From Patescibacteria group bacterium (GTDB lineage: Bacteria; Patescibacteriota; Patescibacteriia; Buchananbacterales; UBA6539), in contig JAVEXP010000003.1 of assembly GCA_034003985.1 (NCBI GenBank), positions 58,643-122,642 of the forward strand: 64,000 nucleotides of DNA, given 5' to 3'. Shown here one piece after another: positions 12,474 to 64,000 of this stretch (position 1 is the stretch's first letter; every line of letters starts with the position of its first letter). The notes beneath the pieces were generated by a model. The model was not told the DNA's origin. It ran no database searches and saw only the letters and a list, made by a program, of their open reading frames with translations. The position numbers were made by a program, and so were the translations under genes.

Positions 12474-12479
12474 ACTAAT

Positions 12480-15104: not shown

Positions 15105-15107
15105 AGT

Positions 15108-15881: not shown

Positions 15882-15887
15882 AGCTTA

Positions 15888-16225: not shown

Positions 16226-16235
16226 TAAAAATCTT

Positions 16236-16727: not shown

Positions 16728-16753
16728 CAATTGAACAGATTACTATTATACTG

Positions 16754-16828: not shown

Positions 16829-16872
16829 CCCGCAACCAAATAAAAATAATTTACCCGATATAAAGACTTCGC

Positions 16873-16949: not shown

Positions 16950-17067
16950 GACCCAAAAAATCAGCAATAAATCAGCAATTCTCTAGGTCAGGGGATTTTT
17001 TTGTTGTCCAAAAAAAATAAATTTGATAAAATATAAAAGTAATCAACAACTAACCAACTTAATAAAT

Positions 17068-17544: not shown

Positions 17545-17583
17545 TCAAACAATAACCGACCGGAATCACCGGGATCTTTACTT

Positions 17584-18054
17584 ATGTTTTTAACCGTCCA
17601 TACCGCCGCAGGCATTATTATCGGCGAAACCGTAGGCAATCCCTGGCTGGCTTTCCTCGCCGGCTTCATCTCTCATTTTATACTGGATGCCATTCCCCAC
17701 GGTGACAATACACTAATAACCAACCGACCTAAATTCGCCAAGAACACGATTGATCTGCTGGTTAAATTATTAATAATCGACCTGGGTTTTTTGGTTCTAA
17801 TTTTTGGCGCACTATATTTGGAAGGAGAAATTTTACTGACCTGGCCTTTGATAATGGCAGTTGCCGGCACGATCTTGCCCGATTTCATTCAAGGAGTATA
17901 TTTTTTAACCAAAACCAAAAAATTAGAGAAATATTTCGCTTTTCACGAAAGAATGCATACGGTTATGAATGGTCTGACCGTATCATTTAGAACCGGAATG
18001 ATAATTCAATTCTCCGTATTGATGATATTACTATTCATTATCTATTTGATTTGA
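17584..18054 (+). CDS. Membrane-bound metal-dependent hydrolase-like protein (YdjM/DUF457-like), paralog 2 (tandem duplicate)
   Basis: MFLTVHTAAGIIIG...SHFILDAIPHGDN...GTILPDFIQ is collinear with the upstream paralog. Confidence 0.4.
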   Translation: MFLTVHTAAGIIIGETVGNPWLAFLAGFISHFILDAIPHGDNTLITNRPKFAKNTIDLLVKLLIIDLGFLVLIFGALYLEGEILLTWPLIMAVAGTILPDFIQGVYFLTKTKKLEKYFAFHERMHTVMNGLTVSFRTGMIIQFSVLMILLFIIYLI

Positions 18055-18141
18055 AAAACCTGCATCACCCCACATCCCCACTTGGATATATATATAATAA
18101 AAAATGCCTGATTGCTCGGGCAAATTTTTATTATATATAAG

Positions 18142-50378: not shown

Positions 50379-50824
50379 AAAAAATCGGATTATTAACCAG
50401 CGGCGTTGTCCTAATCATTGTTATCAGCGGTTTGATCTTGACAATTAAGCCCTCAATCGCCCCGACAATGCCAACTAACCAACCGCCAAACCCAACGGCC
50501 AACGACTTAATTGAAGTTAACCAACCAAAGCCCAATACTGCCATAACATCACCCTACCGGGTTGACGGGCAAGCACGGGGGCATTGGTTTTTTGAAGCAA
50601 CATTCCCAATCATCTTAACGGACAACCAAGGAAACATCTTGGCCAGCAGTTATGCTACTGCCCAAGATGACTGGATGACAACCGAGTTTGTCCCTTTCAG
50701 TGGTGAAATAATTTTTACCAAACCAACCAGCACTACTCAAGGTCAGTTGATATTTAAAAAAGATAATCCATCGGGCTTAAGCGAATACGACGAACAAATT
50801 GCCATCCCGATTACTTTTGAATAA
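50375..50824 (+). CDS. Membrane-anchored Gmad2-like Ig-fold protein
   Basis: An N-terminal TM, then ITSPYRVDGQARGHWFFEATFPIILTDNQGNILASSYATAQDDWMTTEFVPFSGEIIF, resembling the GerM/Gmad2 Ig-like domain. ATGA overlap with the upstream ATPase. Confidence 0.4.
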   Translation: MKKIGLLTSGVVLIIVISGLILTIKPSIAPTMPTNQPPNPTANDLIEVNQPKPNTAITSPYRVDGQARGHWFFEATFPIILTDNQGNILASSYATAQDDWMTTEFVPFSGEIIFTKPTSTTQGQLIFKKDNPSGLSEYDEQIAIPITFE

Positions 50825-50873
50825 ATCAAAAAGCCGCTCGATCATGATGAATGCGTAACGGCTTTTTTAATTA

Positions 50874-51902
50874 TTAGTCCCACTGCAAATTGCCAGAGGT
50901 TTGATATTCGTTAACCCTGGTTTCAAAAAAATTCTTTTCTTTGCGAGCGTCAATAATTTCACTCATCCAAGGAAATGGATTAGCTGTATTATAAACTTTT
51001 GCCAAACCAATGCGCTCCAACCGCCGATCAGCGATATATTTAAGATAGTCTTCAACAATATCGGCGCGCAATCCCAAAATGCCCTTGGGCAAAGCATCGT
51101 AAGCATACTTAGTTTCCAAAGCGACTGCCTTAACAATATTATCCTTGATGTTCTGCTGGAATTCCGCCGTCCAAATATCGGGATTTTCGTTGACAATCGT
51201 ATTGATTAAATCGGTGCCAAAAGCCAGATGAACCGATTCATCACGCAGAATAAACTGGAATTGCTCACCAACGCCGATCATTTTATTATGGCGCAATAAA
51301 GAAAGCATCATCGCAAAACCGGCGTAAAAAAAGATGCCCTCCATAATGACATAAAACCCAACCAAATCATGGACAAACCGTTGAATATTGGCCACCCCGA
51401 CGGTGTTAAAATTCGGATCCAGTACGGATTTGGTCATATCAACCACAAAATCGTCCTTTTCTTTGATGCTGGGAATTTTTTCGTACATCGTATAAATTTC
51501 GTCCGGATCGAGACCTAAAGAATCACAACAATAAATAAAAGTATCGGTATGAACTGCCTCTTCGTAAGCCTGGCGCAACATATACTGGCGGCATTCGGGA
51601 TTGGTGACATGACGATAAATCGCCAAAACAATATTATTGGCGGTTAAACTTTCAGCGGTGGAAAAAAATCCCAAATTCCATAAAATCATTCGTCGCTCAT
51701 CGGCCGTTAAGGCTTTAGGGCCCTGGCGTTTCCACAATTCAATATCATCCTGCATTGGAACTTCTTCGGGGACCCAGTTATTGGCCACCCCGTTTTTGTA
51801 ATGCAATCGCGCCCAGGGATACTTCAAAGGTAAAATTTTATTGGGATCGGTGGTTGAGTTGTTAATTATTCCTACAGGCATAAAATTGATAATTATTGAC
51901 AA
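50874..51902 (-). CDS. nrdB: Ribonucleotide reductase class Ia beta subunit (R2)
   Basis: Di-iron/tyrosyl ligand regions EAVHTDTFIYC and FEGIFFYAGFAMMLSL; C-terminal tail for R1 binding. 342 aa. Confidence 0.85.
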   Translation of the reverse strand: MSIIINFMPVGIINNSTTDPNKILPLKYPWARLHYKNGVANNWVPEEVPMQDDIELWKRQGPKALTADERRMILWNLGFFSTAESLTANNIVLAIYRHVTNPECRQYMLRQAYEEAVHTDTFIYCCDSLGLDPDEIYTMYEKIPSIKEKDDFVVDMTKSVLDPNFNTVGVANIQRFVHDLVGFYVIMEGIFFYAGFAMMLSLLRHNKMIGVGEQFQFILRDESVHLAFGTDLINTIVNENPDIWTAEFQQNIKDNIVKAVALETKYAYDALPKGILGLRADIVEDYLKYIADRRLERIGLAKVYNTANPFPWMSEIIDARKEKNFFETRVNEYQTSGNLQWD

Positions 51903-54706
51903 GATTCACAAGTTGGATCGTCGATTTTACAAAGCAATAAATTGTTGTTGGCAACCTCGGCAGGGCTGGCCGAAGCCAGAACCACTGGTTCAACCGAAGG
52001 CCTGATGGTTAGATCTTCGGCCTGATGAGCAATATTGGACATACTTTTTTGTTTATCTAAATCCAAAGCGCTTTGCTCCACAGCAGTAGCCCCCAAGGTT
52101 CGCAAATAATAAGTAGTTTTCAACCCCAGCCGCCAAGCCAGCTGATACATATCGGCAATCTTCTTGCCAGAATTACCCTTAAAAAACAAGTTCAATGACT
52201 GACTTTGATCAATCCACTTGCCGCGATAAGCGGCGGCTTGAATTAACCAATCAGCTTCAATTTCAAAAACTTCTTTATATTTGTCCTGCAAAACTTCGGG
52301 GATTTGTTTAAGGTCGCCAATACTGCCCTCGTGACCCTTAATCATCGCCAAAATTTCTTCGTTCCATAATTGTCGTTTTTTAAGATCAGCAACCAAATAA
52401 GGATTAACAATAATAAACTCACCGCTCATGTTGGATTTGACATAAACATTCTTATAGATTGGTTCAATGCTGGGAAAACACCCGGCGATATTGGCGATCG
52501 TCGCCGTCGGGGCAATAGCCATACAGTTGGAATTACGCATGCCATATTTGGCAACAGCCTGGCGAACCGGTTGCCAGTCCAGTTTGCCCTGACGCTTGAC
52601 TTCAATTGTTTCACCCCGTTCTTGTTCCAATAAATCGAGGGTATCAACCGGAAATATCCCCCGATCCCATTTGGAACCGCGGTAGCTTTGGTAAGCCCCC
52701 CGCTCTTGAGCCAATTGGCTGGAAGCTAAAATAGCATAGTAAGAAATAACTTCCTGGGAATAGTCAGCAAAATCGATACATTCAGGCGAGCTGAAATTAA
52801 TGTCCAACAAATACAAAGCGTCTTGAAAACCCATCAGCCCCAGGCCTACTGGCCGATGGCGCAAATTGGAATTTTTACCCTCAACAGTCGGATAAAAATT
52901 GATATCAATAACATTATCCAACATTCTCATGGCGGTAGTGACGGTATCTTTCAATAACTCAATATCAAGCTGTTTGTTTTTAAGGTGTCGCGCCAAATTA
53001 ACGGAACCAAGATTACAGACTGCTGTTTCATCAGCCGTAGTATTCAAAGTAATCTCAGTACAGAGGTTGGAACTATGAACCACTCCCACATGATCCTGCG
53101 GTGACCGAATATTAGATGGATCTTTCCAGGTCATCCAGGGATGACCGGTTTCAAACAACATCATAATCATCTTCTTCCAAAGCTCGCGGGCTTTGATTTT
53201 TTGGAACAAGCGTAATTTACCCTGGCTGGCCAAGGTTTCGTAATGCGTGTAGCGAGAAACAAAATTACGACCGTAAGCATGGTGCAAATCAGAGGTTTCC
53301 TCGGGCGAAAACAAAATCCAGTCCTGATCAGCCATCACCCGCTGCATAAATAAATCAGGGATCCAGGCGGCAGTATTCATGTCGTGAGTGCGCCGCCGCT
53401 CATCGCCGGTGTTCTTGCGCAGTTCCAAAAAATCGGGAAAATCACAATGCCACGCTTCCAAGTAGGCGCAAGTCGCGCCACGCCGACGGCCGGATCGATT
53501 TATGGCGACAGTGGTATCATTGGCAATCTTTAAGAATGGAATTACACCCTGGCTTTCAACGCCCGTCCCTTTAATCAAAGCACCGGTAGCGCGCAGATTG
53601 GTCCAGTCGTTAGCCACTCCGCCAGACCATTTCGACATTTGGGCGTTATCGCCAACACACTTAAAGATGTGGTCCAACGAATCCTCAACCGTTGTCAGAT
53701 AACAAGAACTGAGTTGCGGCTGGTTGGTACCGGCATGAAACAAGGTTGGGGTTGAAGGAACAAAACGCAAGGAAGAAATTAAATCATAGAACTGCAAGGC
53801 CCGAGCTTCGGCCTCGTCTTCATTAACCGCCAAACCCATGGCCACCCGCAGCCAAAAAGCCTGAGGCGTTTCCAAAATGCTTTTGGTTTTGGGATTGGAA
53901 ATAAAATAACGATCATATAAAGTTTGACCGCCAAGATAAAAAAACAAATCATCACGCTCAAGTTTAAGCTGTCGGCTTAAAGCTTCGAGATTGAAATTAA
54001 GCAAACGCGGATCAAGCCGGCCGATTTGGACTCCCATCTTAAGATTATTGATAAAAGCCTGACGATATTGTTGATCAAGATTTTTATAGTCTAATTTCTG
54101 ACCAATGACCTCGCGATAAAGCGAATCAAACAACAACCGAACGGCAACTCGGGAATAAGCCGGATCGCGCTCAATTAAACTGCGGGCGGCCAGCACTCTG
54201 GCTTTGGCGATTTCAGCAGTCTTAATGCCATCAAACAAATTGGCCTCGGTCTGTTTAACCATTAAATCAATATCAACTTCGGATTCGAAGCCCTTGACTA
54301 CCCAGCCAAAAGAGTTCTTAAGTTTTTTTAGGGAAAATTTTTCCTTTTGGCCGGAGCGCTTAACAACCGTCAGATCGCTTCGTTCAATCTTTTCCTGAAG
54401 ATCCTGACGCTGCTGATCTCTGACCTTAGAATGCTCATAACGATAAATAATATAACTTCTGGCAACCTCAAAAAAACCACTGGCCATCAGTTTTTTCTCG
54501 ACAATATTTTGGACATCCTCAACCCCGGGCATAGCATCAACAAACCGATTAGCCAATTCCAAAACCGCATCGTCAACGATTATTTCAAGTTGTTCTTCGG
54601 TAACATCTTGCCCAAGGGCAGCAAAGGCTTGGCGCAAGGCATTAACAATTTTTTTAGAATCAAAATCAACAATCCGGCCATCACGCTTTTTGATTTGAGC
54701 AATCAT
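51893..54706 (-). CDS. nrdA: Ribonucleotide reductase class Ia alpha subunit (R1) with an N-terminal ATP-cone
   Basis: ATP-cone MIAQIKKRDGRIVDFDSKKIVNALRQA; catalytic region with the conserved Cys/Asn/Glu set (NLCTEI) and C-terminal redox cysteines. 937 aa. Overlaps nrdB by 10 nt. Confidence 0.9.
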   Translation of the reverse strand: MIAQIKKRDGRIVDFDSKKIVNALRQAFAALGQDVTEEQLEIIVDDAVLELANRFVDAMPGVEDVQNIVEKKLMASGFFEVARSYIIYRYEHSKVRDQQRQDLQEKIERSDLTVVKRSGQKEKFSLKKLKNSFGWVVKGFESEVDIDLMVKQTEANLFDGIKTAEIAKARVLAARSLIERDPAYSRVAVRLLFDSLYREVIGQKLDYKNLDQQYRQAFINNLKMGVQIGRLDPRLLNFNLEALSRQLKLERDDLFFYLGGQTLYDRYFISNPKTKSILETPQAFWLRVAMGLAVNEDEAEARALQFYDLISSLRFVPSTPTLFHAGTNQPQLSSCYLTTVEDSLDHIFKCVGDNAQMSKWSGGVANDWTNLRATGALIKGTGVESQGVIPFLKIANDTTVAINRSGRRRGATCAYLEAWHCDFPDFLELRKNTGDERRRTHDMNTAAWIPDLFMQRVMADQDWILFSPEETSDLHHAYGRNFVSRYTHYETLASQGKLRLFQKIKARELWKKMIMMLFETGHPWMTWKDPSNIRSPQDHVGVVHSSNLCTEITLNTTADETAVCNLGSVNLARHLKNKQLDIELLKDTVTTAMRMLDNVIDINFYPTVEGKNSNLRHRPVGLGLMGFQDALYLLDINFSSPECIDFADYSQEVISYYAILASSQLAQERGAYQSYRGSKWDRGIFPVDTLDLLEQERGETIEVKRQGKLDWQPVRQAVAKYGMRNSNCMAIAPTATIANIAGCFPSIEPIYKNVYVKSNMSGEFIIVNPYLVADLKKRQLWNEEILAMIKGHEGSIGDLKQIPEVLQDKYKEVFEIEADWLIQAAAYRGKWIDQSQSLNLFFKGNSGKKIADMYQLAWRLGLKTTYYLRTLGATAVEQSALDLDKQKSMSNIAHQAEDLTIRPSVEPVVLASASPAEVANNNLLLCKIDDPTCESCQ

Positions 54707-54982
54707 ATAATTTAACCTCCTTAAAAATTTAATTACAAGCTTAGGCTGACAAAAAAATAAGACAGGAAACCTAGGCCATCTTATTTTAAACCAGTACCGG
54801 CCAAAATCATTCCGGCGGGTTTGTTAATTATATAAAATATTTTTCAATAAGACAAACACCTAGTAAAATACTAGGAAATTGTTAAAAATGGCAAAGTAAT
54901 CCACAACTCAAGCATTGGATCAAAAAACCCGCCGGTTTGGCCGGCGGGCTGGAAATCATAATGACCGAAGAGAAAATTGCGA

Positions 54983-55468
54983 TTATTCAACAATCAGCTT
55001 GCCAATCATACCCATTTGGCGATGCTGCCCAACGCTACAATAATATTCAAAAGTACCAGCCTGATCAGCAATAAACTCAACCGATGATGAATCACCAGTC
55101 ATTACCTGTTTGGTGGCAGCCCCAAATTCATCGACCACCCAATCATGGAATCCGTCGGTACTAGTAAAATTAATAACCACACGATCTCCCTTTTTCACTG
55201 TGATTTCAGTCTGGGAAAAGGCAAAATTGGTACCGCTGATATTAAAAACTTTAGCCTCATTAGCAGTCGGTTCATCAAGCTGGTCGACCATCTGATCTTC
55301 TGTGATTGAATTATTCACTTCATCAATCATCATTACGCCACGACCCTGATCGTCGGCCAGGGTTTCACTAATATCCGCATCGCTTTGGATAGTAATGTCG
55401 GAAATACTACAACCAGCAACCAGCCCCGATAATCCGATGATGGCTGCCAATAAAAAATATGTCTTCAT
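54983..55468 (-). CDS. Cupredoxin (plastocyanin/azurin-like) lipoprotein
   Basis: Lipobox LVAGC. Type-1 Cu ligand pattern H(DWVVDE)...C-SVGQ-H-RQ-M (FHDW... YYCSVGQHRQMGM). The terminator CCCGCCGG-tttgg-CCGGCGGG+T7 lies at ~54920-54950 on the minus strand. Confidence 0.55.
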   Translation of the reverse strand: MKTYFLLAAIIGLSGLVAGCSISDITIQSDADISETLADDQGRGVMMIDEVNNSITEDQMVDQLDEPTANEAKVFNISGTNFAFSQTEITVKKGDRVVINFTSTDGFHDWVVDEFGAATKQVMTGDSSSVEFIADQAGTFEYYCSVGQHRQMGMIGKLIVE

Positions 55469-55647
55469 ATTTTATTATTTATTATTAAGTAATAATTTAA
55501 TTAATGACGGTTTATACATTTTACCCTATGATGACATAATGTCAAATTATTAAATTCCATTAAACCAAATAGAAAACCAGCCGCTTCGTTTCGCAACGAT
55601 GCGGCTGGCGCAAATTGGTCTGGCCACCAGCCAAGTGTCCACAGTGT

Positions 55648-57132
55648 TCACTTGGTGGGCGGCACGGCCTTATTGGTGTTGAACCACTCATCGTGACTGG
55701 CGCGAAGATCTTGCGTCAGCCCGTCGATGTGGTCCGTTTGGGATCCCCAATTGCTTGGGTACCCAAGCCGGGAGCGAATGCGAGACTGGCGGGTCTCCAA
55801 GCGCCGAGACTGATCGGCACCCAGTTCGACTCGGTCGACCTTGACCAAGCGGCCATCTCGTTCACCCGTGAATTCCAGGTGTTCGAGCGGCAGCTGGATC
55901 TGCTTAGGCGCAACCGCGATCTGCCCGCTAGCCTTGGGGTCGACAACCGACACGAAGGTCAGCCAAACCCCGTCGTTCCAAGACTGTTGATAGGTTCCCG
56001 GGGGCAGGAACCAACCATCGGCTTGGGCCTTGGAAGTTTTGGCCTCTTCCTCGTCGTTGAGGCCGACCCAGTCCTTCCCCTTCTCCCAAAGGCCGAGGGG
56101 AGAAACAATGGACTTGTGAGCCGGTTTGGGATCGGGAATGGTTGGCGCGCTGCCGGGGTTGCGAAGGATGGAATAAACCATTCCAACGACTACGCCAAGC
56201 AGCAAAACAGCCAAGACCAGCCACAATTTTGGCCGGTGGTGAGTTGCCACCGTTCGGCCCTGATCATCCAGATTGACCAGAACCAGAGGTTCAGCGGTGC
56301 CACCAGGGCGATCATCTTCGCCCCAGAACTCTTCGGCGCTGGCACCACCGGTTCCCAACGGCTGGGGACCAAGGTCCGAAGCGTGCCCGAAGGGATCGGC
56401 CAAGGCTTCCTTGTCAGGATCACCTGACTCGCCTCCCCAGACATCATCGAAACGAGGGTGCGGTCCAGAGTCTCGCCCCAGGTCGGAATCAGAAAAGGGT
56501 GGAAGCGATTCAGGGCCATTATCCTGGTGGAGTTCACCATCACTTCCTTCGTCAAAAACCGGCAGCCCCTCTTCATCGGCATGGTCGACATCCTGGTTGG
56601 CATCACCAGGGTCGAGTGTCGGTTCAGGCCACAGAGAATCCGGATCTTCAGCCTCAACAGCTTCTTGTTGGCCTTCGGCTTGTTCCGAATCAGATCCCAA
56701 CCCTGCAAGCAGAGCATCCAAATCCTCTGGCGAAAGCGAAGTCGGTTCAAGGTCATCCTCCTGAGGCGGAGGGCCAGTTTCTTCATCAAGAACCGGCAAA
56801 CCCTCTTCGGCAGGTTCGACATCCTGGTTGGCATCACCAGGGCCGAGCGTCGGTTCGGGCTCGGGTGGTAGTGGGAGCGTGTCCCAAATCAGATAATTTG
56901 CCAGCACCTCGCTGTTGACATACGGCAAATTCTGAAAGGCCACATCTTTTTCCACCTCTTCAAAGACATAGCCCCAACCGTCATCTTGGAGTCCAGCGAC
57001 TTCTGTGGTAAAGATGTCGCCAAACCCCTGAGCAGCCAAGTAAGTTTTGATCTCCTCGTCGGATTTGAAACCGTCGAGAATCTCTCCCTTTCCGGCCGCC
57101 CGAAAAACCTCAATTACTTGTTGAGCCTGCAT
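55648..57132 (-). CDS. GC-rich hypothetical membrane protein: N-terminal cytosolic domain, tandem acidic Pro-rich repeats, one TM helix and a ~190-aa extracytoplasmic domain
   Basis: RBS AAGGAG overlaps the upstream gene's stop. The repeats read EPTLGPGDANQDVEPAEEGLPVLDEE and EPTLDPGDANQDVDHADEEGLPVFDEG. TM helix LWLVLAVLLLGVVVGMVYSIL. The terminator CCAGCCGC..GCGGCTGG+T-run lies at ~55575-55612. ~60% GC. Confidence 0.6.
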   Translation of the reverse strand: MQAQQVIEVFRAAGKGEILDGFKSDEEIKTYLAAQGFGDIFTTEVAGLQDDGWGYVFEEVEKDVAFQNLPYVNSEVLANYLIWDTLPLPPEPEPTLGPGDANQDVEPAEEGLPVLDEETGPPPQEDDLEPTSLSPEDLDALLAGLGSDSEQAEGQQEAVEAEDPDSLWPEPTLDPGDANQDVDHADEEGLPVFDEGSDGELHQDNGPESLPPFSDSDLGRDSGPHPRFDDVWGGESGDPDKEALADPFGHASDLGPQPLGTGGASAEEFWGEDDRPGGTAEPLVLVNLDDQGRTVATHHRPKLWLVLAVLLLGVVVGMVYSILRNPGSAPTIPDPKPAHKSIVSPLGLWEKGKDWVGLNDEEEAKTSKAQADGWFLPPGTYQQSWNDGVWLTFVSVVDPKASGQIAVAPKQIQLPLEHLEFTGERDGRLVKVDRVELGADQSRRLETRQSRIRSRLGYPSNWGSQTDHIDGLTQDLRASHDEWFNTNKAVPPTK

Positions 57133-57143
57133 GGTTCATCTCC

Positions 57144-58025
57144 TTATTCCGCGGCGCGGATTGTCAGGACAACGACTTGCTTGCTTGGGGCCAAGCCCGA
57201 CAAGCGAAACTGAACAGTGGCACTACCCTTGATGTGGGGTAGTTTTTCGGTTGGGACTTCTCGCCAACCTTCACCATTCAGATTCCAGCTCAGGCCACAG
57301 CTGTCGGCAAAACCCAGACTATACTGAATCTGTTCCCGAATGGCAAACGCCAGCTTGGGCGTTTCCTGTCCGGGTGCCACCTCCACGGCCCACTTTTCCA
57401 GGACTTGCGACTCCTCTTTGGGAACTGCTTCCCAGCGCGGAGCCTGATTCTCGAGAGGTTCGTTACTGACGGCATCACGGGCCAACCAGCACAAGCTCTC
57501 TTCCTTGTAGGGTGGGAGCGCAACCCAACAGTAGGTCGTCAGATCGCCGGGGAATGTCCGCGATGCCCCGGGATAGTAGCGAACTACATCGCCGGGCTTA
57601 GCGATCTTTCCCTCAATCGGATTGTGGCGATCATCATAGACCACCGCGGCCGAGACTACCGCTCGGACCGAGTAATTGGCAATCCGGTCACCAATCTCAC
57701 CCGCGTCCAAGTTGACCCGGCTGACCTCGTGGTCGACCAGAGCGGCTTCGCGGTCCAGTTGGCTGTTGGCCAACTGCTGACGCGAGCCTCGGTAGTGTTC
57801 GACAATGGCACGAGCCTCGGGCGAGGTTGCGGCCAGCTTGTCGAGCTCGTCATTGCGGACTTGCTCAACGCTGGTCTGCTTGCCCCAGCCCGCATAGCTC
57901 TTGTACCAAGGCCAGGCTTTCGGCAAAACCAGAAACGCGCCGATCACCACCGCGATCCAAAATACCGACACCAAGAAATTCCATGTCCGTGCCTTCGCTT
58001 CAACGCTCATGACGCTTTCCTCCAC
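57144..58025 (-). CDS. GC-rich hypothetical single-pass membrane protein (293 aa)
   Basis: RBS GGTGGAGGAAAG is followed by ATG. N-terminal TM FLVSVFWIAVVIGAFLVLP. Translationally coupled to the downstream 494-aa gene (stop inside the next RBS). Confidence 0.55.
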   Translation of the reverse strand: MEESVMSVEAKARTWNFLVSVFWIAVVIGAFLVLPKAWPWYKSYAGWGKQTSVEQVRNDELDKLAATSPEARAIVEHYRGSRQQLANSQLDREAALVDHEVSRVNLDAGEIGDRIANYSVRAVVSAAVVYDDRHNPIEGKIAKPGDVVRYYPGASRTFPGDLTTYCWVALPPYKEESLCWLARDAVSNEPLENQAPRWEAVPKEESQVLEKWAVEVAPGQETPKLAFAIREQIQYSLGFADSCGLSWNLNGEGWREVPTEKLPHIKGSATVQFRLSGLAPSKQVVVLTIRAAE

Positions 58026-58130
58026 CGGAAAAGTCCGGTTTGTTTGAAGTTCCGTTCAATACCAAAATATATATTCACAGGTTGTCAAAGACCTGATTAA
58101 TCGCTAATCGCACATTGATTAGGATTATAT

Positions 58131-58159
58131 ATTTTATCATATTTTAGATAATTTGTCAA
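58131..58159 (-). promoter_or_regulatory. Near-consensus sigma70 promoter driving the GC-rich B-C operon (TTGACA-17-TAAAAT; TATGAT also present)
   Basis: Minus-strand sequence TATTGACAAATTATCTAAAATATGATAAAATAT lies in a ~300-bp stretch of <25% GC between two ~60% GC genes. Confidence 0.5.
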
Positions 58160-58329
58160 TAAATTACTTAAAAAACAAACTAAAAAATAATAATAATTTT
58201 GGCTAAAATTAAATAAATATTAATGATTAAATTTTGATTATTTAAAAAATAGTAAATTTAGCTAAAAAAGAAGGCGGGCATTCGATTGCTCGTTTGCCCG
58301 CCGTGTTAATGGAAGGATGATTGTGAGGG

Positions 58330-60162
58330 TTACTTTTTTTCACCCTCTTTACCACGGCGATCCTTGTCGCCTCCCCGTTGCTCGCCCTTGCCGCGATCTC
58401 CTCGGTCGCCCTTGCCACCACCACGGTCATCCCGCGGTTTAGTGCTGCGATCACCGGACTGCGGACGAGGACGGTCGGTGCGGGGACGCTGCTGGCCTTC
58501 GGCGCGTGGTGGAGTTGGATCACTCAATCCAGCCAATCCTCGGTAAGTTGCCATCAGACTGACAAGGTCAGTCTGGGCACCACCCGGAGTGGTCACCACC
58601 GTCAGGTTGCCAGTCTTACTGGCAATAGTCCCGGCCGCGTCAACTGCCAAGATTTCATGCCCGCCAGGCGAATTGATTGCCTTGGCGCGCTCGCTGATTG
58701 AGTACGCCTGCGCGTCAGCGAGAATCATTGTCGCCTTGGCGTCGCCAGTGGCTTCGTTGGCCTTGGCCGCGGCTTTGGCCAAAGCGGCCTTGGCATCCTG
58801 CACTGACCGGGCCAGCGATGTATTGCTGGGTTCCAGATCCGTAACCTGGGCATCGTAGAGAAGAAAACCGAATTTCTCCATGATTACCGCGGCCGGTGAT
58901 TCCGCCGGAAACGAATCGACCAGAACAATGTTTCGGCCTTGCATTTCCAAGCGGGGACGAATCGGCCGGGTATCCTGATCGTGGTTGACCGTCGGACTGT
59001 ACCCGTCAAACGGCGGAGCCACCAACTTCAGCTTCCAGGCCAAAACGCGATGGGCCTGAAGCTGGATAATCGGATTGAGTTCCAAAGCCCCGAACTCGTT
59101 CTTGGCCTTCTTCTTACTCCTGGCCTTGGCCGAGTCGGCGGCATTAGCCCCAGCTTCGCTGCCAGCATCCTCTTCCGCTTCGTCGGTCTCGTCGACATCC
59201 CGTTTGGCAAAATAGCGCAACGATGCGACCACCTGGCGCCAGCGCGCCAAAATGATGTTGCGCGTCGCTTCAATCGGGAAGTCGGCGCCAAACACTGCCA
59301 GATAAGGATCCCAAACCACCGCTCGGAGGAACAAGTCCGCCGAAATGTCGATTGGGTCAGCGGTGCCCGAATCAGGCACTACGCCGCCGGCTTTGATTTC
59401 GCGCAGCCAGTTCCAGGTGCGCTCGGTGAGGTCGAGGTAACGAACCGGCTGCTTACTGGCACTTTGGACATCGCTGTCCTTTTCATACCAAGGCGGTGCC
59501 ATCTTGTAGCGCCACGGCCAAACCGTAACGCCAAGAAAGTATAGGCCCTTACCCGGAGGTAACAGCACATACCGATCCTTGGTTTGCATCTGGGCGTTGC
59601 GAAGCCTTACCAACAGCTGGTAATGCTTGCGTTTTTCCGGGTCGCTGGTATTGATAATGATCTTCCAGATACCCTTGTCGCCCATGATAAAAGCGGCACG
59701 GTTTTCCGGGACCATCACCCACCACCAGCCCAGTTCGCCCATCGGCCGCAGCATCGGCTGGCTGCTGAAAAACACCAACAGTCCGCCGACCAAGCCAAAG
59801 CCAATCAAAGCGAGCGGGCCAAATGGGTAGTCAAACGACGAGACACCCACCAAACCCAAAACGATGAGGAAAAGACCGCCGAAGACAAAGGCAAAGTACT
59901 GCCAAAAGTCTCGGCGATAGCCGTCCAACTCGTGCCAGATTTCTTCCTCGCCAGGGTTGACCTTGCGCGAAAGACTCTTGCGCTCCACCGACCAGGCGCC
60001 AGTCAGAATGCCGGCAATGCAGATGCCGCCAGCCAGCGCCAGGCTGCCAAACGGCTGCGGGGTGAACAAAAACAACGCCACCGCAATAATCAGGGTTGCC
60101 ACCAGTTTGGCAACCAGGTTGCCGCTCTTGCTAGCAACCTTCTCATCAGACTTATTAGCCAT
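58330..60162 (-). CDS. GC-rich SPFH/band-7 (flotillin-like) membrane protein with two N-terminal TM hairpins and a C-terminal Ala-rich coiled coil plus an RGD-rich disordered tail
   Basis: Consensus RBS AAGGAGG 7 nt before ATG (revcomp 60160-60162). The SPFH-like core reads VMVPENRAAFIMGDKGIWK...YFLGVTVWPW...ISADLFLRAVVWDPYLAVFGADFPIEATRNIILARWRQVVASL (cf. YqiK IVPQGEVGVVTRFG...VDAVVYYRVTDP...LAQTTLRSVIG). The tail is RPRTDRPRPQSGDRSTKPRDDRGGGKGDRGDRGKGEQRGGDKDRRGKEGEKK. The terminator GGCGGGCA..TGCCCGCC+T7 lies at 58264-58300. Confidence 0.6.
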   Translation of the reverse strand: MANKSDEKVASKSGNLVAKLVATLIIAVALFLFTPQPFGSLALAGGICIAGILTGAWSVERKSLSRKVNPGEEEIWHELDGYRRDFWQYFAFVFGGLFLIVLGLVGVSSFDYPFGPLALIGFGLVGGLLVFFSSQPMLRPMGELGWWWVMVPENRAAFIMGDKGIWKIIINTSDPEKRKHYQLLVRLRNAQMQTKDRYVLLPPGKGLYFLGVTVWPWRYKMAPPWYEKDSDVQSASKQPVRYLDLTERTWNWLREIKAGGVVPDSGTADPIDISADLFLRAVVWDPYLAVFGADFPIEATRNIILARWRQVVASLRYFAKRDVDETDEAEEDAGSEAGANAADSAKARSKKKAKNEFGALELNPIIQLQAHRVLAWKLKLVAPPFDGYSPTVNHDQDTRPIRPRLEMQGRNIVLVDSFPAESPAAVIMEKFGFLLYDAQVTDLEPSNTSLARSVQDAKAALAKAAAKANEATGDAKATMILADAQAYSISERAKAINSPGGHEILAVDAAGTIASKTGNLTVVTTPGGAQTDLVSLMATYRGLAGLSDPTPPRAEGQQRPRTDRPRPQSGDRSTKPRDDRGGGKGDRGDRGKGEQRGGDKDRRGKEGEKK

Positions 60163-60288
60163 GCGAGTTCCTCCTTGCCTGTCAGCAGACAGGCGGGTTG
60201 ATTCAAATCGGTCGAACCGAATTTCCTTCCAGTTAAATTGCCAATGATCTATACAAACACCCATTGAATCACAATGAGGTGATTTTAT

Positions 60289-60317
60289 ATCATACCAAAA
60301 TTCTAATATTTTGTCAA
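60289..60317 (-). promoter_or_regulatory. Consensus sigma70 promoter (TTGACA-17-TATGAT) driving the SPFH gene
   Basis: Minus-strand sequence CTATTGACAAAATATTAGAATTTTGGTATGATATAAAA. The first 16 nt are identical to the promoter of the 10.2-11.6 kb GC-rich gene (11717-11739). Confidence 0.55.
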
Positions 60318-60394
60318 TAGAAAATCTAAAATTAAATAAAAACAACCCCCTAGCTAAGAGGGAGCAGATATCTGTTAATTAATTTTACACGATA

Positions 60395-60799
60395 TTATGA
60401 ACCGGCCAGCGTGCTGATAACAAAAGATACGATCGCGTAACTCATAAAAATTACCGCCAAGCCAAAAACCGCCCACATAATCATGTCTTTGCCTTTTTTA
60501 ATTTTTTCTTCATTACCCGCCGAAGTCACCCAGGTGAAACCACCTAACACGAAAACCGCCAGTGCCAACGAGCCAACCAAACCAAGCATGGCTCTAATGA
60601 CATTGCCAATAATCACCCGCGGATCAGCGGTTGGCAAAGGATTATCCAAACCGCTGGGACTGCCATACCCAGTTGGACCCAAACCTTCAGCGCCTTCTCC
60701 ATATACTGTTGGATCGCGTCCAGCCAAGACATTGGTTAAAGGAAAAAATGAAAAAACTAACATCAGAACTAGAATTGAAGCAATAAAATATTTATTCAT
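60395..60799 (-). CDS. Small secreted/membrane protein (134 aa) with a signal peptide and two C-terminal hydrophobic helices separated by a short basic loop (VirB2/TrbC-pilin-like or holin-like topology)
   Basis: MNKYFIASILVLMLVFSFFPLTNVLA; ...MLGLVGSLALAVFVLGGFTWV-TSAGNEEKIKKGKD-MIMWAVFGLAVIFMSYAIVSFVI. Confidence 0.4.
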   Translation of the reverse strand: MNKYFIASILVLMLVFSFFPLTNVLAGRDPTVYGEGAEGLGPTGYGSPSGLDNPLPTADPRVIIGNVIRAMLGLVGSLALAVFVLGGFTWVTSAGNEEKIKKGKDMIMWAVFGLAVIFMSYAIVSFVISTLAGS

Positions 60800-60816
60800 A
60801 CTATTTTAAGTATAAA

Positions 60817-61620
60817 TTAGTGCCGGCGCAGTGTCAAACCTTTAAACCGGACAAAAATCATGACCAAACTGACAATAATTAGCCCGGTGCTGAAAACAAT
60901 CGGCCAGCGCACGCCAAAAAATAACGGTGTTTGGTCCAGCCGTAAAATCTCCATCAAAATCCGAATAATGGAATAATTAATCAAATAGATAAATAGCAGG
61001 ACGCCGGATTTTAGTTTTAATTTTTGATAGATGAAAAGCAGGATTAAAAAATTAAGCAAATTCAAAATTGATTCATATAAAAAAGTCGGATGAAAATAGT
61101 GATGACTTAAATATTCCAACGGCCGATTGGCCAAATCAATGGGAATACCCCAGGACAAATCAGTTGGCCGGCCAAACAATTCCTGATTAAAATAATTGCC
61201 AAAGCGGCCAATCGCCTGGCCCAAGGGCAAGGCCACAACCAACAAATCAGCCAAAATCCAAAAATTCAAACCCTTGGTCCAACAATAAATAACCAAAGTA
61301 AAAACAGCGCCAATAATCGCTCCGTGAATGGCCAAGCCGCCGTGCCAAACGGCAAAAATTTCAAAAGGATGCGACTGATAAAAACGCAAATCCAAAAAAA
61401 CAGCGTAAATCCTGGCACCCAGCAAACTGGCAAGCAGCAAATAAAAACCAAAATCATAAATTTGATCACGGCTGATTTTCTGGTTTTTTGCCAACTTTAA
61501 AACAACCAACAGACCGGCGATTATTCCCAACACAATAAACAAACCATACCAATGAATTTTTAAAAAACCGAATTGGAATAAAATTGAATTGGGCTGAAAA
61601 TGATGCAAAAAATTTATCAT
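60817..61620 (-). CDS. lgt: Prolipoprotein diacylglyceryl transferase
   Basis: HWYGLFIVLGIIAG near the N-terminus and the Lgt signature GRFGNYFNQELFGRPT. The ORF-track start at 61731 is extended; MINFLHH at 61620 is the likely start. Confidence 0.8.
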   Translation of the reverse strand: MINFLHHFQPNSILFQFGFLKIHWYGLFIVLGIIAGLLVVLKLAKNQKISRDQIYDFGFYLLLASLLGARIYAVFLDLRFYQSHPFEIFAVWHGGLAIHGAIIGAVFTLVIYCWTKGLNFWILADLLVVALPLGQAIGRFGNYFNQELFGRPTDLSWGIPIDLANRPLEYLSHHYFHPTFLYESILNLLNFLILLFIYQKLKLKSGVLLFIYLINYSIIRILMEILRLDQTPLFFGVRWPIVFSTGLIIVSLVMIFVRFKGLTLRRH

Positions 61621-61720
61621 ATTTTCAGTATAACATGTTTTAAAGATAAAAAAATAAGGGGGAGACCGGAAGTGACTTTTCACTCCGGCTCCCCCGAGAC
61701 TGCTTGGAAATCGCGACGGG

Positions 61721-61906
61721 TTACGCCGCAACCAACTTGCGGGCGCGATGTCCGCATTTCACCTTGCTCGAGGTAAAGCGCCCATCATGAGCCTCGGCCG
61801 CAGCGCGGCGTTGGAGATTGCGGACCTCGGGTTTGGTGGTGGCGGTGGCGGTTTTGGAAATTGTCTTTCCCGACTCGTCGACGATGTTCCAGCGGACTTC
61901 AACCAT
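61721..61906 (-). CDS. Small GC-rich hypothetical protein (61 aa)
   Basis: RBS GGGAGAG before ATG. Product MVEVRWNIVDESGKTISKTATATTKPEVRNLQRRAAAEAHDGRFTSSKVKCGHRARKLVAA. A long imperfect hairpin terminator lies at 61656-61700. ~62% GC. Confidence 0.45.
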   Translation of the reverse strand: MVEVRWNIVDESGKTISKTATATTKPEVRNLQRRAAAEAHDGRFTSSKVKCGHRARKLVAA

Positions 61907-62155
61907 GATCTTCTCTCCCGTTTTGAACCTGAGTTAATGTAATGACAGAATGATTCAGACGCTCAGCGTTCAAACGGCGGATCGTGCGATTTTGCCGACA
62001 TGGCAACCCTCCTTATGGTTTTGTTTCTCCTGCCAAGGCAGCCCAGTCAGCACTGTGGACTACCTATATAAAATACACCATACCAAAAATTGACCTTAAT
62101 GTCAAGGTTAACTAAAAAACGGCGGCTGATTCCGCCTGTTTTTTAGTTAGAATAA

Positions 62156-64000
62156 TTATTGCTTGCGGCGAAGTTTCTTTTCCTGTTCCAAGACTTCCAA
62201 AGTGGTTTTAACAATCGTATCGGGATTAAGCGACATACTGTCAATCCCCTGACTGACCAAGAACTTGGCCAAATCGGGAAAGTCGGACGGCGCCTGGCCG
62301 CAGATGCCGATTTTGCGTTTGGCCTTTTTGGCAATCTTGATTACTTGAGCCAGCATTTTTTTGACCGCTTCATCGCGCTCATCATAAACATTAGCCACCA
62401 ACGAAGAATCACGGTCAACCCCCAAGACCAGTTGGGTCAAATCATTGGAGCCAATCGAAAAACCGTCAAAAATCTCAGCGAATTTTTCGGCCAAAATCAC
62501 ATTGGAAGGAATTTCACACATCACATAAATTTCCAAACCATCCTCGCCCTGCTTGAGACCGGCTTGATTGATTACCTTAATCACCTTGCGGCCTTCTTCG
62601 ACAGTGCGACAAAATGGCACCATCATTTTAACATTCTTCAAACCAAATACATCCCGGGCTTTTTTGAAGCCCTGACATTCCAGCATAAACGCTTCTTGAT
62701 ATTGCGGCGCGTAATAGCGAGAAGCGCCGCGCCAACCAATCATCGGATTGGATTCGATCGGTTCAAATTCAGTGCCACCGATCAAATTGGCATATTCGTT
62801 TGATTTAAAGTCAGACAAACGGAAAATCACATCCTTGGGATAAAAGGCTGATGCCAACTGACCGATGCCTTCGGCCAACTTGTCAACAAAATACTGACCT
62901 TTGTTTTTGTAACCAACGGTTAGTTTGGCGATTTGTTTTTTGGCGCGCTTGTCTTTCAGTTTGTCAAAATGAAGCAGCGCCAAAGGATGAATCTTAATCT
63001 GATTGGCAATAATAAATTCTTCACGGGCCAAACCGACACCATCGTTGGGAATAAACGAAGACGCAAAAGCGATGTCGGGTTGACCGATATTCATCATAAT
63101 TTTGGTTTTCGGCCGCTTGATCTGGCGAACATTGGTCTTTTTGACTTCAAACGGCAGTAAACCATCATAAACATAGCCGGTTTCACCTTCAGCGCAAGAA
63201 ATGGTCACTTTTTGCCCCGGCTTGATTTTTTTGGTCGCCTCCACCGTGCCGACAATACAAGGAATACCAAGCTCGCGGCTGACAATGGCCGCATGGCAAG
63301 TCCGGCCGCCCTTGTTGGTAATAATCCCGGCGGCAATCTTCATAATCGGCTCCCAGTCGGGATCGGTCATGTCGGTCACCAGAATCTGGCCGGCCACAAA
63401 CCGTTCAATTGCCTTGGGGCTTTTAATAATATTGGCTACGCCGTTGGCAATTTTATTGCCGACCGACGGACCCTGAACAATCACCGTCCCGCGTTTGGCC
63501 AGCTTATATTCTTCTAAAACACTCAAATTCTTAGCGGCGTGAACGGTTTCGGGACGAGCTTGAAGAATGAAAAGTTTTTTGGTTTTACCGTCCTTGGCCC
63601 ACTCAATATCCATCGGCCGCTGATAATGCTTTTCAATCAGCACTCCCCATTCGGCCAATTGCAAAATTTCTTTGTCTGTTAAAACATATTTTTGCTGTTC
63701 AGCTACGGTCGTTCGGACATCCTTGACCGGTTGACGATTGGCGGCTTTGGCATCATAAATCATCTTGATTTTTTTACTGCCAAGTTTTCTGTTAATAATT
63801 GGTTTATAGCCCTGACTTAAAGTTTCTTTAAAAACATAAAACTCGTCGGGGTTAACTTTGCCCTGAACGACATTTTCCCCCAGCCCCCAAGAACCATTGA
63901 TCAGCAGCGCGCCGCGAAAACCACTTTCGGTGTCAATCGTGAACATCACCCCGGAACAAGCCTTGTCGGAACGAACCATCAATTGAACGCCGACGGACAA
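62156..64000 (-). CDS. ppsA: Phosphoenolpyruvate synthase (pyruvate, water dikinase), C-terminal ~614 aa; the N-terminus lies beyond the right window edge
   Basis: Phosphohistidine swivel domain GGRTCHAAIVSRELGIPCIVG and C-terminal PEP-utilising TIM barrel (..MCEIPSNV.., GICGQAPSD). The bidirectional terminator GGCGG-aatcag-CCGCC with flanking T-runs lies at 62115-62147. Confidence 0.85.
   Translation of the reverse strand: MSVGVQLMVRSDKACSGVMFTIDTESGFRGALLINGSWGLGENVVQGKVNPDEFYVFKETLSQGYKPIINRKLGSKKIKMIYDAKAANRQPVKDVRTTVAEQQKYVLTDKEILQLAEWGVLIEKHYQRPMDIEWAKDGKTKKLFILQARPETVHAAKNLSVLEEYKLAKRGTVIVQGPSVGNKIANGVANIIKSPKAIERFVAGQILVTDMTDPDWEPIMKIAAGIITNKGGRTCHAAIVSRELGIPCIVGTVEATKKIKPGQKVTISCAEGETGYVYDGLLPFEVKKTNVRQIKRPKTKIMMNIGQPDIAFASSFIPNDGVGLAREEFIIANQIKIHPLALLHFDKLKDKRAKKQIAKLTVGYKNKGQYFVDKLAEGIGQLASAFYPKDVIFRLSDFKSNEYANLIGGTEFEPIESNPMIGWRGASRYYAPQYQEAFMLECQGFKKARDVFGLKNVKMMVPFCRTVEEGRKVIKVINQAGLKQGEDGLEIYVMCEIPSNVILAEKFAEIFDGFSIGSNDLTQLVLGVDRDSSLVANVYDERDEAVKKMLAQVIKIAKKAKRKIGICGQAPSDFPDLAKFLVSQGIDSMSLNPDTIVKTTLEVLEQEKKLRRKQ

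Follow-up and report, generated by a model that had tools for sequence, protein, structure and literature searches.

The A-B-C locus

Three minus-strand genes, here called A, B and C, occupy positions 55.6-60.2 kb of the window, that is, of the whole 64-kb stretch of Patescibacteria DNA that was analysed (Table 1). Their GC content is 57-58%, against about 42% for the host genome. In 300-nt windows, the region from 55.55 to 60.2 kb reaches 52-62% GC and its flanks 35-48%, with a minimum of about 30% inside the block, at 57.95-58.4 kb. The sole other equally GC-rich region within the 64 kb is a block at 10-12 kb.

Table 1. Features of the A-B-C locus and of related regions of the window (SD sequences were read from the sequence; TM, transmembrane)
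Feature	Position	Strand	Remarks
lgt, prolipoprotein diacylglyceryl transferase	60817-61620	-	conserved upstream neighbour
VirB2-like pilin gene (PF18895 T4SS_pilin)	60395-60799	-	host-like composition; conserved module neighbour
Upstream box TTTATTTAATTTTAG, copy 1	60326-60340	-	immediately 5' of A promoter
Gene A promoter	60289-60317	-	TTGACA, 17 nt, TATGAT; TG ahead of -10; 11/12 consensus matches
Gene A SD	60170-60176		AAGGAGG, 7 nt ahead of start
Gene A	58330-60162	-	610 aa; four TM helices, SPFH and coiled coil, basic tail
Gene A, TM helices	59767-60117		residues 16-132 (hydropathy)
Gene A, divergent SPFH domain and Ala-rich coiled-coil region	58738-59730		about residues 145-475
Gene A intrinsic terminator	58264-58302	-	GGCGGGCA...UGCCCGCC then UUCUUUUUU
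A/B spacer	58011-58329	-	AT-rich, 29% GC; carries box copy 2, B-C promoter and leader box
Upstream box TTTATTTAATTTTAG, copy 2	58203-58217	-	5' of B-C promoter
B-C promoter	58131-58159	-	near-consensus sigma-70; TG ahead of -10; 11/12 consensus matches
Conserved leader box GGTCTTTGACAACC	58080-58093	-	within A/B spacer
Gene B SD	58019-58023		GGAGG, 8 nt ahead of ATG 58010
Gene B	57144-58010	-	288 aa (most likely start); one N-terminal TM helix, residues 12-30
Gene C SD			AAGGAG, overlapping the B stop; B-C gap 11 nt
Gene C	55648-57132	-	494 aa; translationally coupled to B; N-terminal region of about 95 aa
Gene C repeats	56573-56629 and 56804-56860		57-nt copies, 89% identical, 231 nt apart
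Gene C, TM helix	56164-56220		residues 305-323, followed by a 170-aa C-terminal part
B-C unit intrinsic terminator	55566-55609	-	CCAGCCGC...GCGGCUGG then UUUUCUAUUU
GC-rich surface gene	10156-11571		same synonymous signature as A-B-C

Gene A and the SPFH proteins

The product of gene A matches Band_7 (PF01145) with 24.9 bits, above the cut-off of 23.6, and the same domain is matched by 22 of the 26 members of the A family, at best with an E-value of 4.7e-18. Single-protein phmmer searches of the PDB returned nothing, and the family profile was needed to reach structural relatives. The best PDB match of this profile is QmcA (8z5g, E 5.7e-12), followed by PH stomatin (6e-8 and 2e-6) and HflK/HflC (about 1e-6); another stomatin and prohibitin are also matched. 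Flotillin-2 appears weakly (E 0.003), ranking below QmcA, stomatin and HflK/C, and Pfam returned Band_7 only, with no Flot domain in A. On these profile comparisons, gene A is established as encoding a genuine, if divergent, member of the SPFH proteins, of stomatin/QmcA type. This agrees with a preliminary description of the DNA, which had proposed an SPFH/band-7 protein with a double N-terminal TM hairpin; four N-terminal TM helices are present. The tail (residues 545-610) is basic and rich in Arg, Gly, Asp and Lys, and contains a single RGD rather than being RGD-rich as described before. The AlphaFold2 model computed from the single sequence without an alignment was unusable (pLDDT 41.5).

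Genes B and C, the putative partners

Gene B most likely starts at ATG 58010, in agreement with the Logan gene call of 288 aa, rather than at GTG 58025, which had given the longer coordinates 57144-58025. Behind the TM helix the protein has a helical stretch and then a C-terminal part that is beta-rich and bears the family motif xAPGQETP. An HMM built from six homologues (alignment A3) detects the B gene of genome L011 at 2e-42 and a gene of L014 at 2e-21, but fails to detect the gene adjoining A in L012, L018 and L019. By these profile matches, B is a real family. Neither Pfam nor the PDB gave a match for gene B, its profile likewise found no PDB relative, and the single-sequence AlphaFold2 model without an alignment was again unusable (pLDDT 44).

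In gene C, residues 96-300 form an acidic and Pro-rich region with 56 Asp/Glu, 6 Lys/Arg and 24 Pro. Genes of the same architecture occupy the C position in L003, L004, L010, L011 and L014, and the sequence similarity of C across these five is not significant. Acidic tandem repeats had been ascribed to both B and C; they are acidic repeats of C, absent from B, and TRF did not call them tandem. The topologies of both proteins are weakly indicated by hydropathy and by a weak charge asymmetry of the flanks. A sub-threshold match of the L011 C N-terminus to the surface-type InlB B-repeat would fit better with an outside location of the N-terminal side of C.

The earlier view that B and C carry no recognisable domain is borne out by the lack of any Pfam match, and their translational coupling by the AAGGAG that overlaps the B stop. 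Likewise, no NfeD partner was found: PF01957 has no match at E <= 1 in B, C, the six B homologues or nine further neighbours. Band_7 has no match in B or C, leaving one SPFH gene in the module, and searches of the module against PHROGs and NCBIfam gave nothing useful.

Expression signals

The box TTTATTTAATTTTAG that precedes both promoters occurs twice in the 64 kb, against 0.08 copies expected, and TTGACAAA together with TGnTAT is conserved 5' of A in five relatives. The A/B spacer measures 230-320 nt in five genomes, with 29-40% GC, the high-GC genome included. Its non-coding boxes are conserved across genomes despite the low protein identity of A and B, which is 20-37%. Both terminators are followed by a T-run; that of gene A folds at -20.9 kcal/mol (z -4.74; equalled by none of 200 shuffles) and that of the B-C unit at -34.8 kcal/mol (z -3.2). 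The host-type expression signals of the preliminary description are thus confirmed by strong SD sequences, two intrinsic terminators and two promoters of near-consensus sigma-70 type, although the spacer, taken there to be below 25% GC, was recomputed at 29%.

A special promoter common to the GC-rich genes was rejected, because TTGACA-N17-TAnnnT is general in this genome. A CAGGT/ACCTG hairpin in the leader is weak, with one compensatory pair against three broken ones; a leader RNA structure is unsupported, since the conservation resides in the loop sequence. The Rfam scan of 55.3-60.9 kb returned no family.

Distribution and neighbourhood of the module

A word-indexed search found only the query itself and had suggested that A, B and C were orphans, a reading that was abandoned when exhaustive HMMER recovered 59 clusters related to A (E <= 1e-3) among 1.8 billion representatives, the closest with 39% identity. 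The search of species genomes for related loci, which used a 9-sequence A alignment, gave three matches to A, all in Patescibacteria; the NCBI names for gene C and for P0037 are Patescibacteria, and every recovered context of A is Patescibacteria-like. Homologues outside Patescibacteria-type contexts were not found, nor were relatives of A in IMG/VR or in the phage and plasmid collections. From these searches, A is apparently a very rare SPFH family restricted to Patescibacteria. Named Buchananbacteria MAGs span 33-56% GC, and most named relatives are low-GC.

About a dozen contexts of A were compared. The order PEP synthase (PEPS)-lgt-(VirB2-like pilin)-A-B(-C) is common to six genomes. It reads (PK)-PEPS-lgt-pilin-A-B-C in the window, L002, L004 and L011, lgt-A-B-pilin-C in L010 and lgt-A-x-pilin in L012; the short contigs of L003 and L017 are consistent with PEPS-lgt-pilin-A-B-C. 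The module is present at the orthologous PEPS-lgt-pilin site in L002, L004, L010, L011 and L012. In L014 and L015 the order is B-C-A, flanked on both sides by the same transposase ORF in L015, and in L018 A is found at a different locus. A and then B occur in every related locus with enough sequence, usually with a C-type gene next.

The pilin gene lies at most two genes from A in 10 of the 12 distinct contexts. Among genes with a Pfam annotation up to about 10 kb away, neither VirB4 nor any other T4SS gene occurs in L001, L011, L012, L018 and L019, and the link between module and pilin is one of adjacency only. In the window there is no integrase at the block edges, no tRNA within 24 kb of the block and no direct repeat flanking it. 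The idea of silent cassettes was rejected, as the window holds no paralogous module fragments elsewhere.

Composition and divergence

Recomputation of GC and GC3 along the window upheld the earlier claim of three GC-rich genes with GC3-biased codons in a low-GC host, with corrected values (57-58% for the genes, given before as about 60%, and about 42% for the host, given as about 40%). GC and GC3 are 0.58 and 0.66 for A, the same for B, and 0.57 and 0.58 for C; GC3 in 41 other ORFs is 0.38-0.58. Under host synonymous usage, the A, B and C proteins would be expected to have a GC3 of just 0.49-0.50, so the bias is synonymous and goes beyond amino-acid content. Two-fold sites of the module and of host genes show C/(C+T) values of 0.53 and 0.34 and G/(G+A) values of 0.58 and 0.29, respectively. 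The composition of A-B-C is atypical at all three codon positions as well as in synonymous usage.

The same gene order and the same compositional contrast were found again in independent genomes. In eight low-GC genomes, the GC3 of the module is 0.46-0.78 versus 0.17-0.51 for the host; in the sole high-GC genome, L003, it is 0.43-0.62 versus about 0.7. Because the contrast recurs at the same locus and reverses in L003, it is a property of the module across the clade and not a trace left by one recent import. Not every lineage has the GC excess: composition is host-like in three of them (L014, L016 and L019). The module's intergenic spacers stay AT-rich across the compared genomes, and the pilin gene embedded in it has a host-like composition, with a GC3 of 0.17 for L012 and of 0.32 for L010.

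Evolution is far more rapid in the coding regions of the module than in the neighbouring genes, and the base composition of these regions does not follow that of the host. Identity across genomes is 70-82% for PEPS, 52-79% for lgt and 42-76% for the pilin, against 19-37% for A and 12-32% for B. Even the closest pair of hosts, L002 and L004, has 82, 79 and 76% for PEPS, lgt and pilin, but 36% for A and 22% for B. Host four-fold sites are 0.33-0.52 identical, compared with about 0.28 at saturation; since they are this close to saturation, little of the GC3 excess of a single old import should be left.

Origin and maintenance of the block

The best reading of the block (probability about 0.6) is that of a three-gene envelope module that is resident in Patescibacteria and limited to them, not of a recent foreign island; lateral exchange within Patescibacteria is possible. 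The preliminary description had favoured horizontal acquisition from a high-GC, for example actinobacterial, donor. A recent import of the whole block from such a donor outside the lineage, later given host promoters, would account for the sharp GC edges and for a composition that is atypical at all codon positions and synonymously, and SPFH genes are known to move laterally (PMC2636767). However, this origin is very unlikely, given that the same module sits at the same locus in related genomes, that the non-coding boxes of the A/B spacer are conserved across them, and that in L003 the host is richer in GC than the module. Homologues come only from Patescibacteria-type contexts and none exceeds 39% identity. 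Judged as a genomic island, the block has the atypical composition, but it is present at the orthologous site, its edges carry no mobility genes, tRNA or flanking repeats, and no donor is identifiable. The sharp GC steps could also be produced by a chimeric assembly or a bin contaminated by a high-GC organism, the chance of which is negligible: a second assembly (Logan, SRR25572339), made with another assembler, is 100% identical over 13,981 nt and spans both junctions, AT-rich host-type promoters lie between the GC-rich genes, and the same arrangement is seen again in samples and projects independent of this one. The module evolves fast and is patchily distributed, much as defence genes are, and an anti-phage defence or toxin module built around the SPFH protein was considered. 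This is highly improbable, as PADLOC gave no match for A and B and only a chance-level one for C (E 0.034 to a methyltransferase model), no enzymatic domain is present, and the neighbourhood is one of conserved core genes rather than a defence island.

For a resident module, the coding-region GC excess would be maintained by a continuing process rather than left over from a single import, and there are two candidates. One is allele replacement in place from a gene pool that Patescibacteria of different GC content have in common, the cassette circulating laterally and each allele carrying the composition of its higher-GC donor. This is a tentative possibility, in favour of which are the displacement from host composition in both directions, A and B distances that do not track host distances, the IS-flanked B-C-A copy of L015 and the relocated copy of L018, the host-like copies of L014 and L019, and the 33-56% GC range of the Buchananbacteria MAG names. 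Yet all eight anomalous low-GC genomes carry GC-richer alleles; with most named relatives low-GC, alleles of low GC should be a frequent outcome of random exchange. Moreover, no genome has a donor-like, near-identical allele, and the host-like pilin and spacers would demand gene-precise replacement. The other candidate is vertical inheritance with GC-biased gene conversion (gBGC) or codon selection holding the coding regions GC-rich, either at a hypervariable surface locus with frequent recombination within populations or through a rare-codon regulon shared with the gene at 10156-11571. A link between recombination and GC3 has been reported in bacteria (PMC4450053), and the excess persists despite the near-saturated synonymous divergence of hosts, does not extend beyond coding sequence, goes together with extreme divergence of the proteins and is shared, as a synonymous signature, by that second GC-rich gene. 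Nevertheless, this explanation is also doubtful in view of the three host-like lineages and of the GC-poorer module of L003, which gBGC alone does not predict. Ordinary translational selection is ruled out, because GroEL and ribosomal protein L20 are not strongly biased.

The resident-module reading implies that a sharp-edged GC island need not mean recent foreign origin. The more surprising part is that the same genes keep a non-host composition in many genomes and in both directions, while their spacers do not, a pattern that makes gene-by-gene control of GC content testable with population data from these metagenomes. If gBGC or codon regulation at a hypervariable locus proved to be true, it would offer a clear example, from bacteria in nature, of a compositional equilibrium that is gene-specific.

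Putative function and relation to known systems

SPFH scaffolds are nearly universal. In prokaryotes they are usually paired with NfeD, and they are often missing from organisms whose genomes are reduced (PMC2636767). The module described here combines a very rare SPFH family with two putative partners of no recognised domain and is tied to the lgt/VirB2-like pilin locus. The VirB2-like pilin class belongs to a T4SS widespread in Patescibacteria (PMC12102498), and a rare Patescibacteria SPFH family at such a locus is therefore a concrete candidate for envelope machinery of episymbiosis.

In the proposed mechanism, gene A would be anchored by its four TM helices with the SPFH and coiled-coil part in the cytoplasm and, by analogy with other SPFH proteins, could oligomerise to a ring or cage enclosing a patch of membrane. 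B would be anchored at its N-terminus, with most of the protein outside the cell, and C would be bitopic, its acidic Pro-rich region lying inside the cell and a small domain on the outer side. Both may be clients or partners of A, in place of the NfeD of canonical operons, with the basic tail of A as a possible docking site for the acidic region of C. What the patch supports is probably a surface structure connected with the pilin or with the contact between the episymbiotic cell and its host. Taken together, A, B and C could form a Patescibacteria-specific, SPFH-organised platform acting with the VirB2-like pilus at host contact, its own composition being set by gBGC or shared codon-level regulation in hosts of about 33-56% GC; as a whole, this scheme is speculative and rather improbable.

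The closest known systems are QmcA-YbbJ, the archaeal stomatin-NfeD pair (PH1511-PH1510) and SPFH2-type operons (Hinderhofer et al. 2009, PMC2636767), in which, as in A, a membrane-anchored SPFH protein has a C-terminal Ala-rich coiled coil. In QmcA/stomatin-NfeD operons the SPFH gene also lies beside genes of membrane-protein partners. However, these operons need an adjacent NfeD (STOPP) with a C-terminal OB-fold, which the module lacks, and have one partner instead of two. A further differs in its four TM helices in place of one hairpin or anchor, in a large insertion within the SPFH region, in its basic low-complexity tail, and in a promoter and terminator of its own, apart from B-C. The flotillins FloA/FloT (YqiK), found with NfeD2, share with A a putatively cytoplasm-facing SPFH scaffold, a long coiled coil, a conserved C-terminal segment and the presumed role of organising membrane microdomains; A, unlike them, matches flotillin-2 weakly and has neither a Flot domain nor NfeD. 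HflK/HflC-FtsH has the SPFH fold that is predicted for A, but HflK and HflC are a paralogous SPFH pair, whereas the module has a single SPFH gene without FtsH linkage, and the cytoplasmic orientation proposed for A is opposite to theirs.

O-antigen and capsule loci of enterobacteria are hypervariable loci for surface structures, with fixed positions and atypical GC. These loci and the variable VirB2-like pilin arrays of Patescibacteria (PMC12102498) are like the module in their conserved position between conserved genes, very divergent alleles, non-host composition and surface or envelope location. Loci of the O-antigen/capsule type are typically AT-richer than the host and encode enzymes, whereas the module is GC-richer and encodes a putative scaffold with bitopic membrane proteins.

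Composition and Assembly of the Module

The GC content of the three-gene block, recomputed in 300-nt windows, reaches 52–62% across window positions 55.55–60.2 kb, compared with 35–48% in the flanks, and dips to ~30% at 57.95–58.4 kb. In 1-kb windows, similar values are found outside the module only at 10–12 kb of the 64-kb window. The third-position GC content (GC3) of genes A, B and C (see the table of features) can be compared with 0.38–0.58 in 41 other ORFs of the window and with the 0.49–0.50 expected for the same proteins under host synonymous codon frequencies. Two-fold sites have a C/(C+T) of 0.53 in the module versus 0.34 in the host, and a G/(G+A) of 0.58 versus 0.29. The bias is therefore both synonymous and amino-acid-driven, the module proteins being enriched in Ala, Gly, Pro, Asp, Glu and Trp and depleted in Lys, Ile and Asn.

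A second assembly (Logan, SRR25572339) is 100% identical to window 48330–62310, with all junctions covered. This identity, combined with the same arrangement in independent genomes and samples, indicates that the GC-rich block is not an assembly artefact, answering the concern of a chimera. The structural account in the preliminary description, including its GC-rich, GC3-biased block, its near-consensus promoters, strong Shine–Dalgarno sequences (SDs) and intrinsic terminators, was upheld, apart from several details corrected below. The other genes noted in the window are ordinary host genes (54983–55468 and 50874–54706, both minus strand, and 12740–15881): a cupredoxin with a lipoprotein-type signal, a class I ribonucleotide reductase carrying an ATP-cone, relA/spoT and parAB.

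Features of the module in the window and in related contigs
Feature	Location	Strand	Remark
Gene A	58330–60162	minus	GC3 0.66
Gene B	57144–58025, as listed in the ORF table	minus	GC3 0.66
Gene C	55648–57132	minus	GC3 0.58
Promoter of A	60317–60289	minus	11/12 consensus positions, extended -10
Promoter of B–C	58159–58131	minus	11/12 consensus positions, extended -10
15-mer TTTATTTAATTTTAG	58203–58217; 60326–60340	minus	one upstream of each module promoter
Leader of A	60163–60288	minus	hairpin CCTGTCtgctGACAGG
Leader of B–C	58011–58130	minus	hairpin ACCGGActtttCCGGT
Leader box GGTCTTTGACAACC	58078–58095	minus	conserved in B–C leader
Leader box, relatives	L002 11705–11716; L004 11675–11686; L011 11757–11768

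Proteins Encoded by the Module

Word-indexed homology searches of A, B and C returned self-matches only, and the NCBI name obtained for gene C was ‘Patescibacteria group bacterium’. With a cut-off of E ≤ 1e-3, an exhaustive HMMER search of 1.84 billion cluster representatives detected 59 relatives of A, of which the best is 39% identical. From the N-terminus, the family shares TM helices, a GWWWVxVPE motif at the domain start, a DPIDV core, an Ala-rich AKGDAxA coiled-coil region, a VGNxTVVSGG segment and a low-complexity tail. Pfam Band_7 is matched by 22 of 26 relatives, and with the family profile similarity was detected to QmcA (E 5.7e-12), Pyrococcus stomatin, HflK/C, stomatin, flotillin-2 and prohibitin. 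These matches identify A as a divergent SPFH protein, as originally assigned, closest to the stomatin/QmcA type. Its tail, previously called RGD-rich, contains a single RGD. Hydropathy predicts four TM helices within residues 16–132; since the N-terminus and the 2–3 loop are positively charged, the positive-inside rule would put the SPFH part on the cytoplasmic side. The public gene call sets the start at ATG 60264 (644 aa), in the AT-rich leader just past the -10; ATG 60162, with AAGGAGG 7 nt upstream and in agreement with the homologue starts, fits better.

B is a member of a genuine protein family, marked by a conserved xAPGQETP motif and a C-terminal part rich in beta structure; no relative was found in Pfam or PDB. 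Its most likely start, shared with the Logan gene call, is ATG 58010 (288 aa) instead of 58025. The acidic repeats ascribed to both B and C are present in C, as two 57-nt copies (89% identical, 231 nt apart), and absent from B. C-type genes are alike across genomes in architecture only: an acidic, Pro-rich and often repetitive region, a single TM helix and a small domain, in many cases with a terminal coiled coil. In line with the initial claim, NfeD was not found in B, C or the homologous and neighbouring proteins searched.

The closest known systems are the QmcA–YbbJ operon, the stomatin–NfeD operon and bacterial flotillins, from which the module differs in the identity and number of its partner genes, the TM anchor, the insertion, the tail and the transcription units. 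In the literature collection searched, no paper was found that connects SPFH proteins with Patescibacteria modules; a flotillin-domain membrane protein of Vampirococcus is mentioned once, in passing, and SPFH is not mentioned in a T4SS survey of Patescibacteria. We propose that A acts as an SPFH scaffold, with the bitopic partners B and C occupying the place of NfeD, and that A, B and C together organise a patch of the envelope with a link to the pilin/lgt locus.

Regulatory Signals

The SD is AAGGAGG for A and GGAGG for B; that of C, AAGGAG, overlaps the stop codon of B. Both terminators form a hairpin with a T-run behind it, folding at -20.9 kcal/mol (z -4.7) in one and at -34.8 kcal/mol (z -3.2) in the other. 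The A|B spacer contains 29% GC rather than the <25% first reported. Whereas A and B diverge strongly between genomes, the non-coding boxes of this spacer, namely TAATTTTAGCC, the promoter and the leader box GGTCTTTGACAACC, are well conserved. The 15-mer occurs exactly twice in the 64 kb, and L003, L004 and L011 all retain its core, TAATTTTAGCC, 5´ of the B promoter.

The leader box is found once per locus, ~35–55 nt downstream of the -10, and is probably the binding site of a regulator. A protein site is the more likely reading because the inverted repeat on either side of the box (CAGGT/ACCTG) forms a weak hairpin, in which one pair shows a compensatory change and three pairs are broken. The leaders of both transcription units measure ~115–125 nt and carry a small hairpin directly 5´ of the SD; Rfam holds no family matching them.

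The Module in Other Genomes

A scan of species genomes yielded three loci, all in Patescibacteria and two of them in Candidatus Buchananbacteria; further loci were taken from a metagenome scan and exact look-ups. The order PEP synthase–lgt–(pilin)–A–B(–C) is common to six genomes (the window, L002, L004, L010, L011 and L012), with pyruvate kinase upstream in several, and the shorter contigs L003 and L017 are consistent with it. The VirB2-like pilin gene (PF18895) either precedes A or separates B from C, and is at most two genes away from A in 10 of 12 contexts. Across genomes, the upstream flank is conserved and the downstream flank is not. Gene A occupies a different locus in L018, and the order is B–C–A in L014/L015, a lineage whose module is of host-like composition. 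In L015 the same transposase-like ORF (MTLTTMSTKELDRF...) stands at both ends of B–C–A (1–873, 4377–4790), resembling a composite transposon; the region noted in L014 is 4807–6123. No relative of A was found in IMG/VR, phage or plasmid collections.

GC3 of host and module in genomes (L, contigs with relatives of gene A)
Genome	Host GC3	Module GC3
Window	~0.45	0.58–0.66
L002	0.39	0.58–0.64
L004	0.35	0.49–0.56
L010	0.40	0.46–0.63
L011	0.39	0.67–0.69
L012	~0.2	0.48–0.55
L017	0.39 (pilin gene alone)	0.51 (A alone)
L018	~0.43	0.67–0.78
L003 (high-GC host)	~0.7	0.43–0.62 (GC-poorer than host)

Inside the module, the pilin gene stays host-like (GC3 0.32 in L010), and the A|B spacer, of 230–320 nt, has 29–40% GC in all five genomes possessing one, L003 included. 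Modules of host-like composition exist in three lineages (L014, L016 and L019).

Divergence and Origin of the Composition

It had been proposed that the module was acquired from a high-GC, possibly actinobacterial, donor. The clade-wide distribution and the recurring compositional contrast do not bear this out; the module is resident in a Patescibacteria group, and its composition is a recurring property rather than the mark of a fresh import. Among these genomes, identity is 70–82% for PEP synthase, 52–79% for lgt and 42–76% for the pilin, versus 19–37% for A and 12–32% for B. In the closest host pair, L002/L004 (82/79/76%), A and B share 36% and 22%, no closer than in far more distant pairs. 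The module is evolving rapidly, and this evolution is probably diversifying. Host four-fold sites are 0.33–0.52 identical, against ~0.28 expected at saturation, so that host synonymous sites have turned over roughly 1.5–2 times. Because of this turnover, a single ancestral import followed by neutral amelioration should leave a small residue, not a GC3 excess of 0.15–0.30.

The composition could be kept distinct from that of the host in two ways. One is the replacement of alleles from a pool common to Patescibacteria of 33–56% GC, which is favoured by the displacement of module GC from the host in both directions, by distances discordant with those of the hosts, and by the existence of an IS-flanked copy and of copies of host-like composition. 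The other is a force that still favours GC, for example biased gene conversion where a hypervariable locus recombines (PMC4450053); it is supported by the confinement of the excess to coding sequence and by the upward shift in all eight anomalous low-GC genomes, though low GC is the rule among the relatives. The module GC3 is unlikely to stem from ordinary translational selection, since the GC3 of GroEL is host-like in L012 and that of ribosomal protein L20 only mildly raised in L011.

Other GC-Elevated Genes

In the very AT-rich L012, a 10-kb GC-elevated run (10001–20579) comprises A, a 417-aa membrane protein, a VWA lipoprotein, an ABC ATPase, a MacB-like permease and a 217-aa protein, with the pilin gene mid-run at GC3 0.17. 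A housekeeping gene of L018, purA (786–1919), has a GC3 of 0.75 versus ~0.43 in the genome and may be a separate acquisition. In the window, a second GC-rich gene (10156–11571, minus; 59% GC, GC3 0.68) lies between topA and relA and encodes a secreted product that has a signal peptide, GEGEGE linkers and domains of the PASTA, Ig and InlB B-repeat types. It has the same synonymous codon signature as the module, and its promoter (~11700–11745, ATTGACAAAATATT...TATGATA) is similar to that of gene A.
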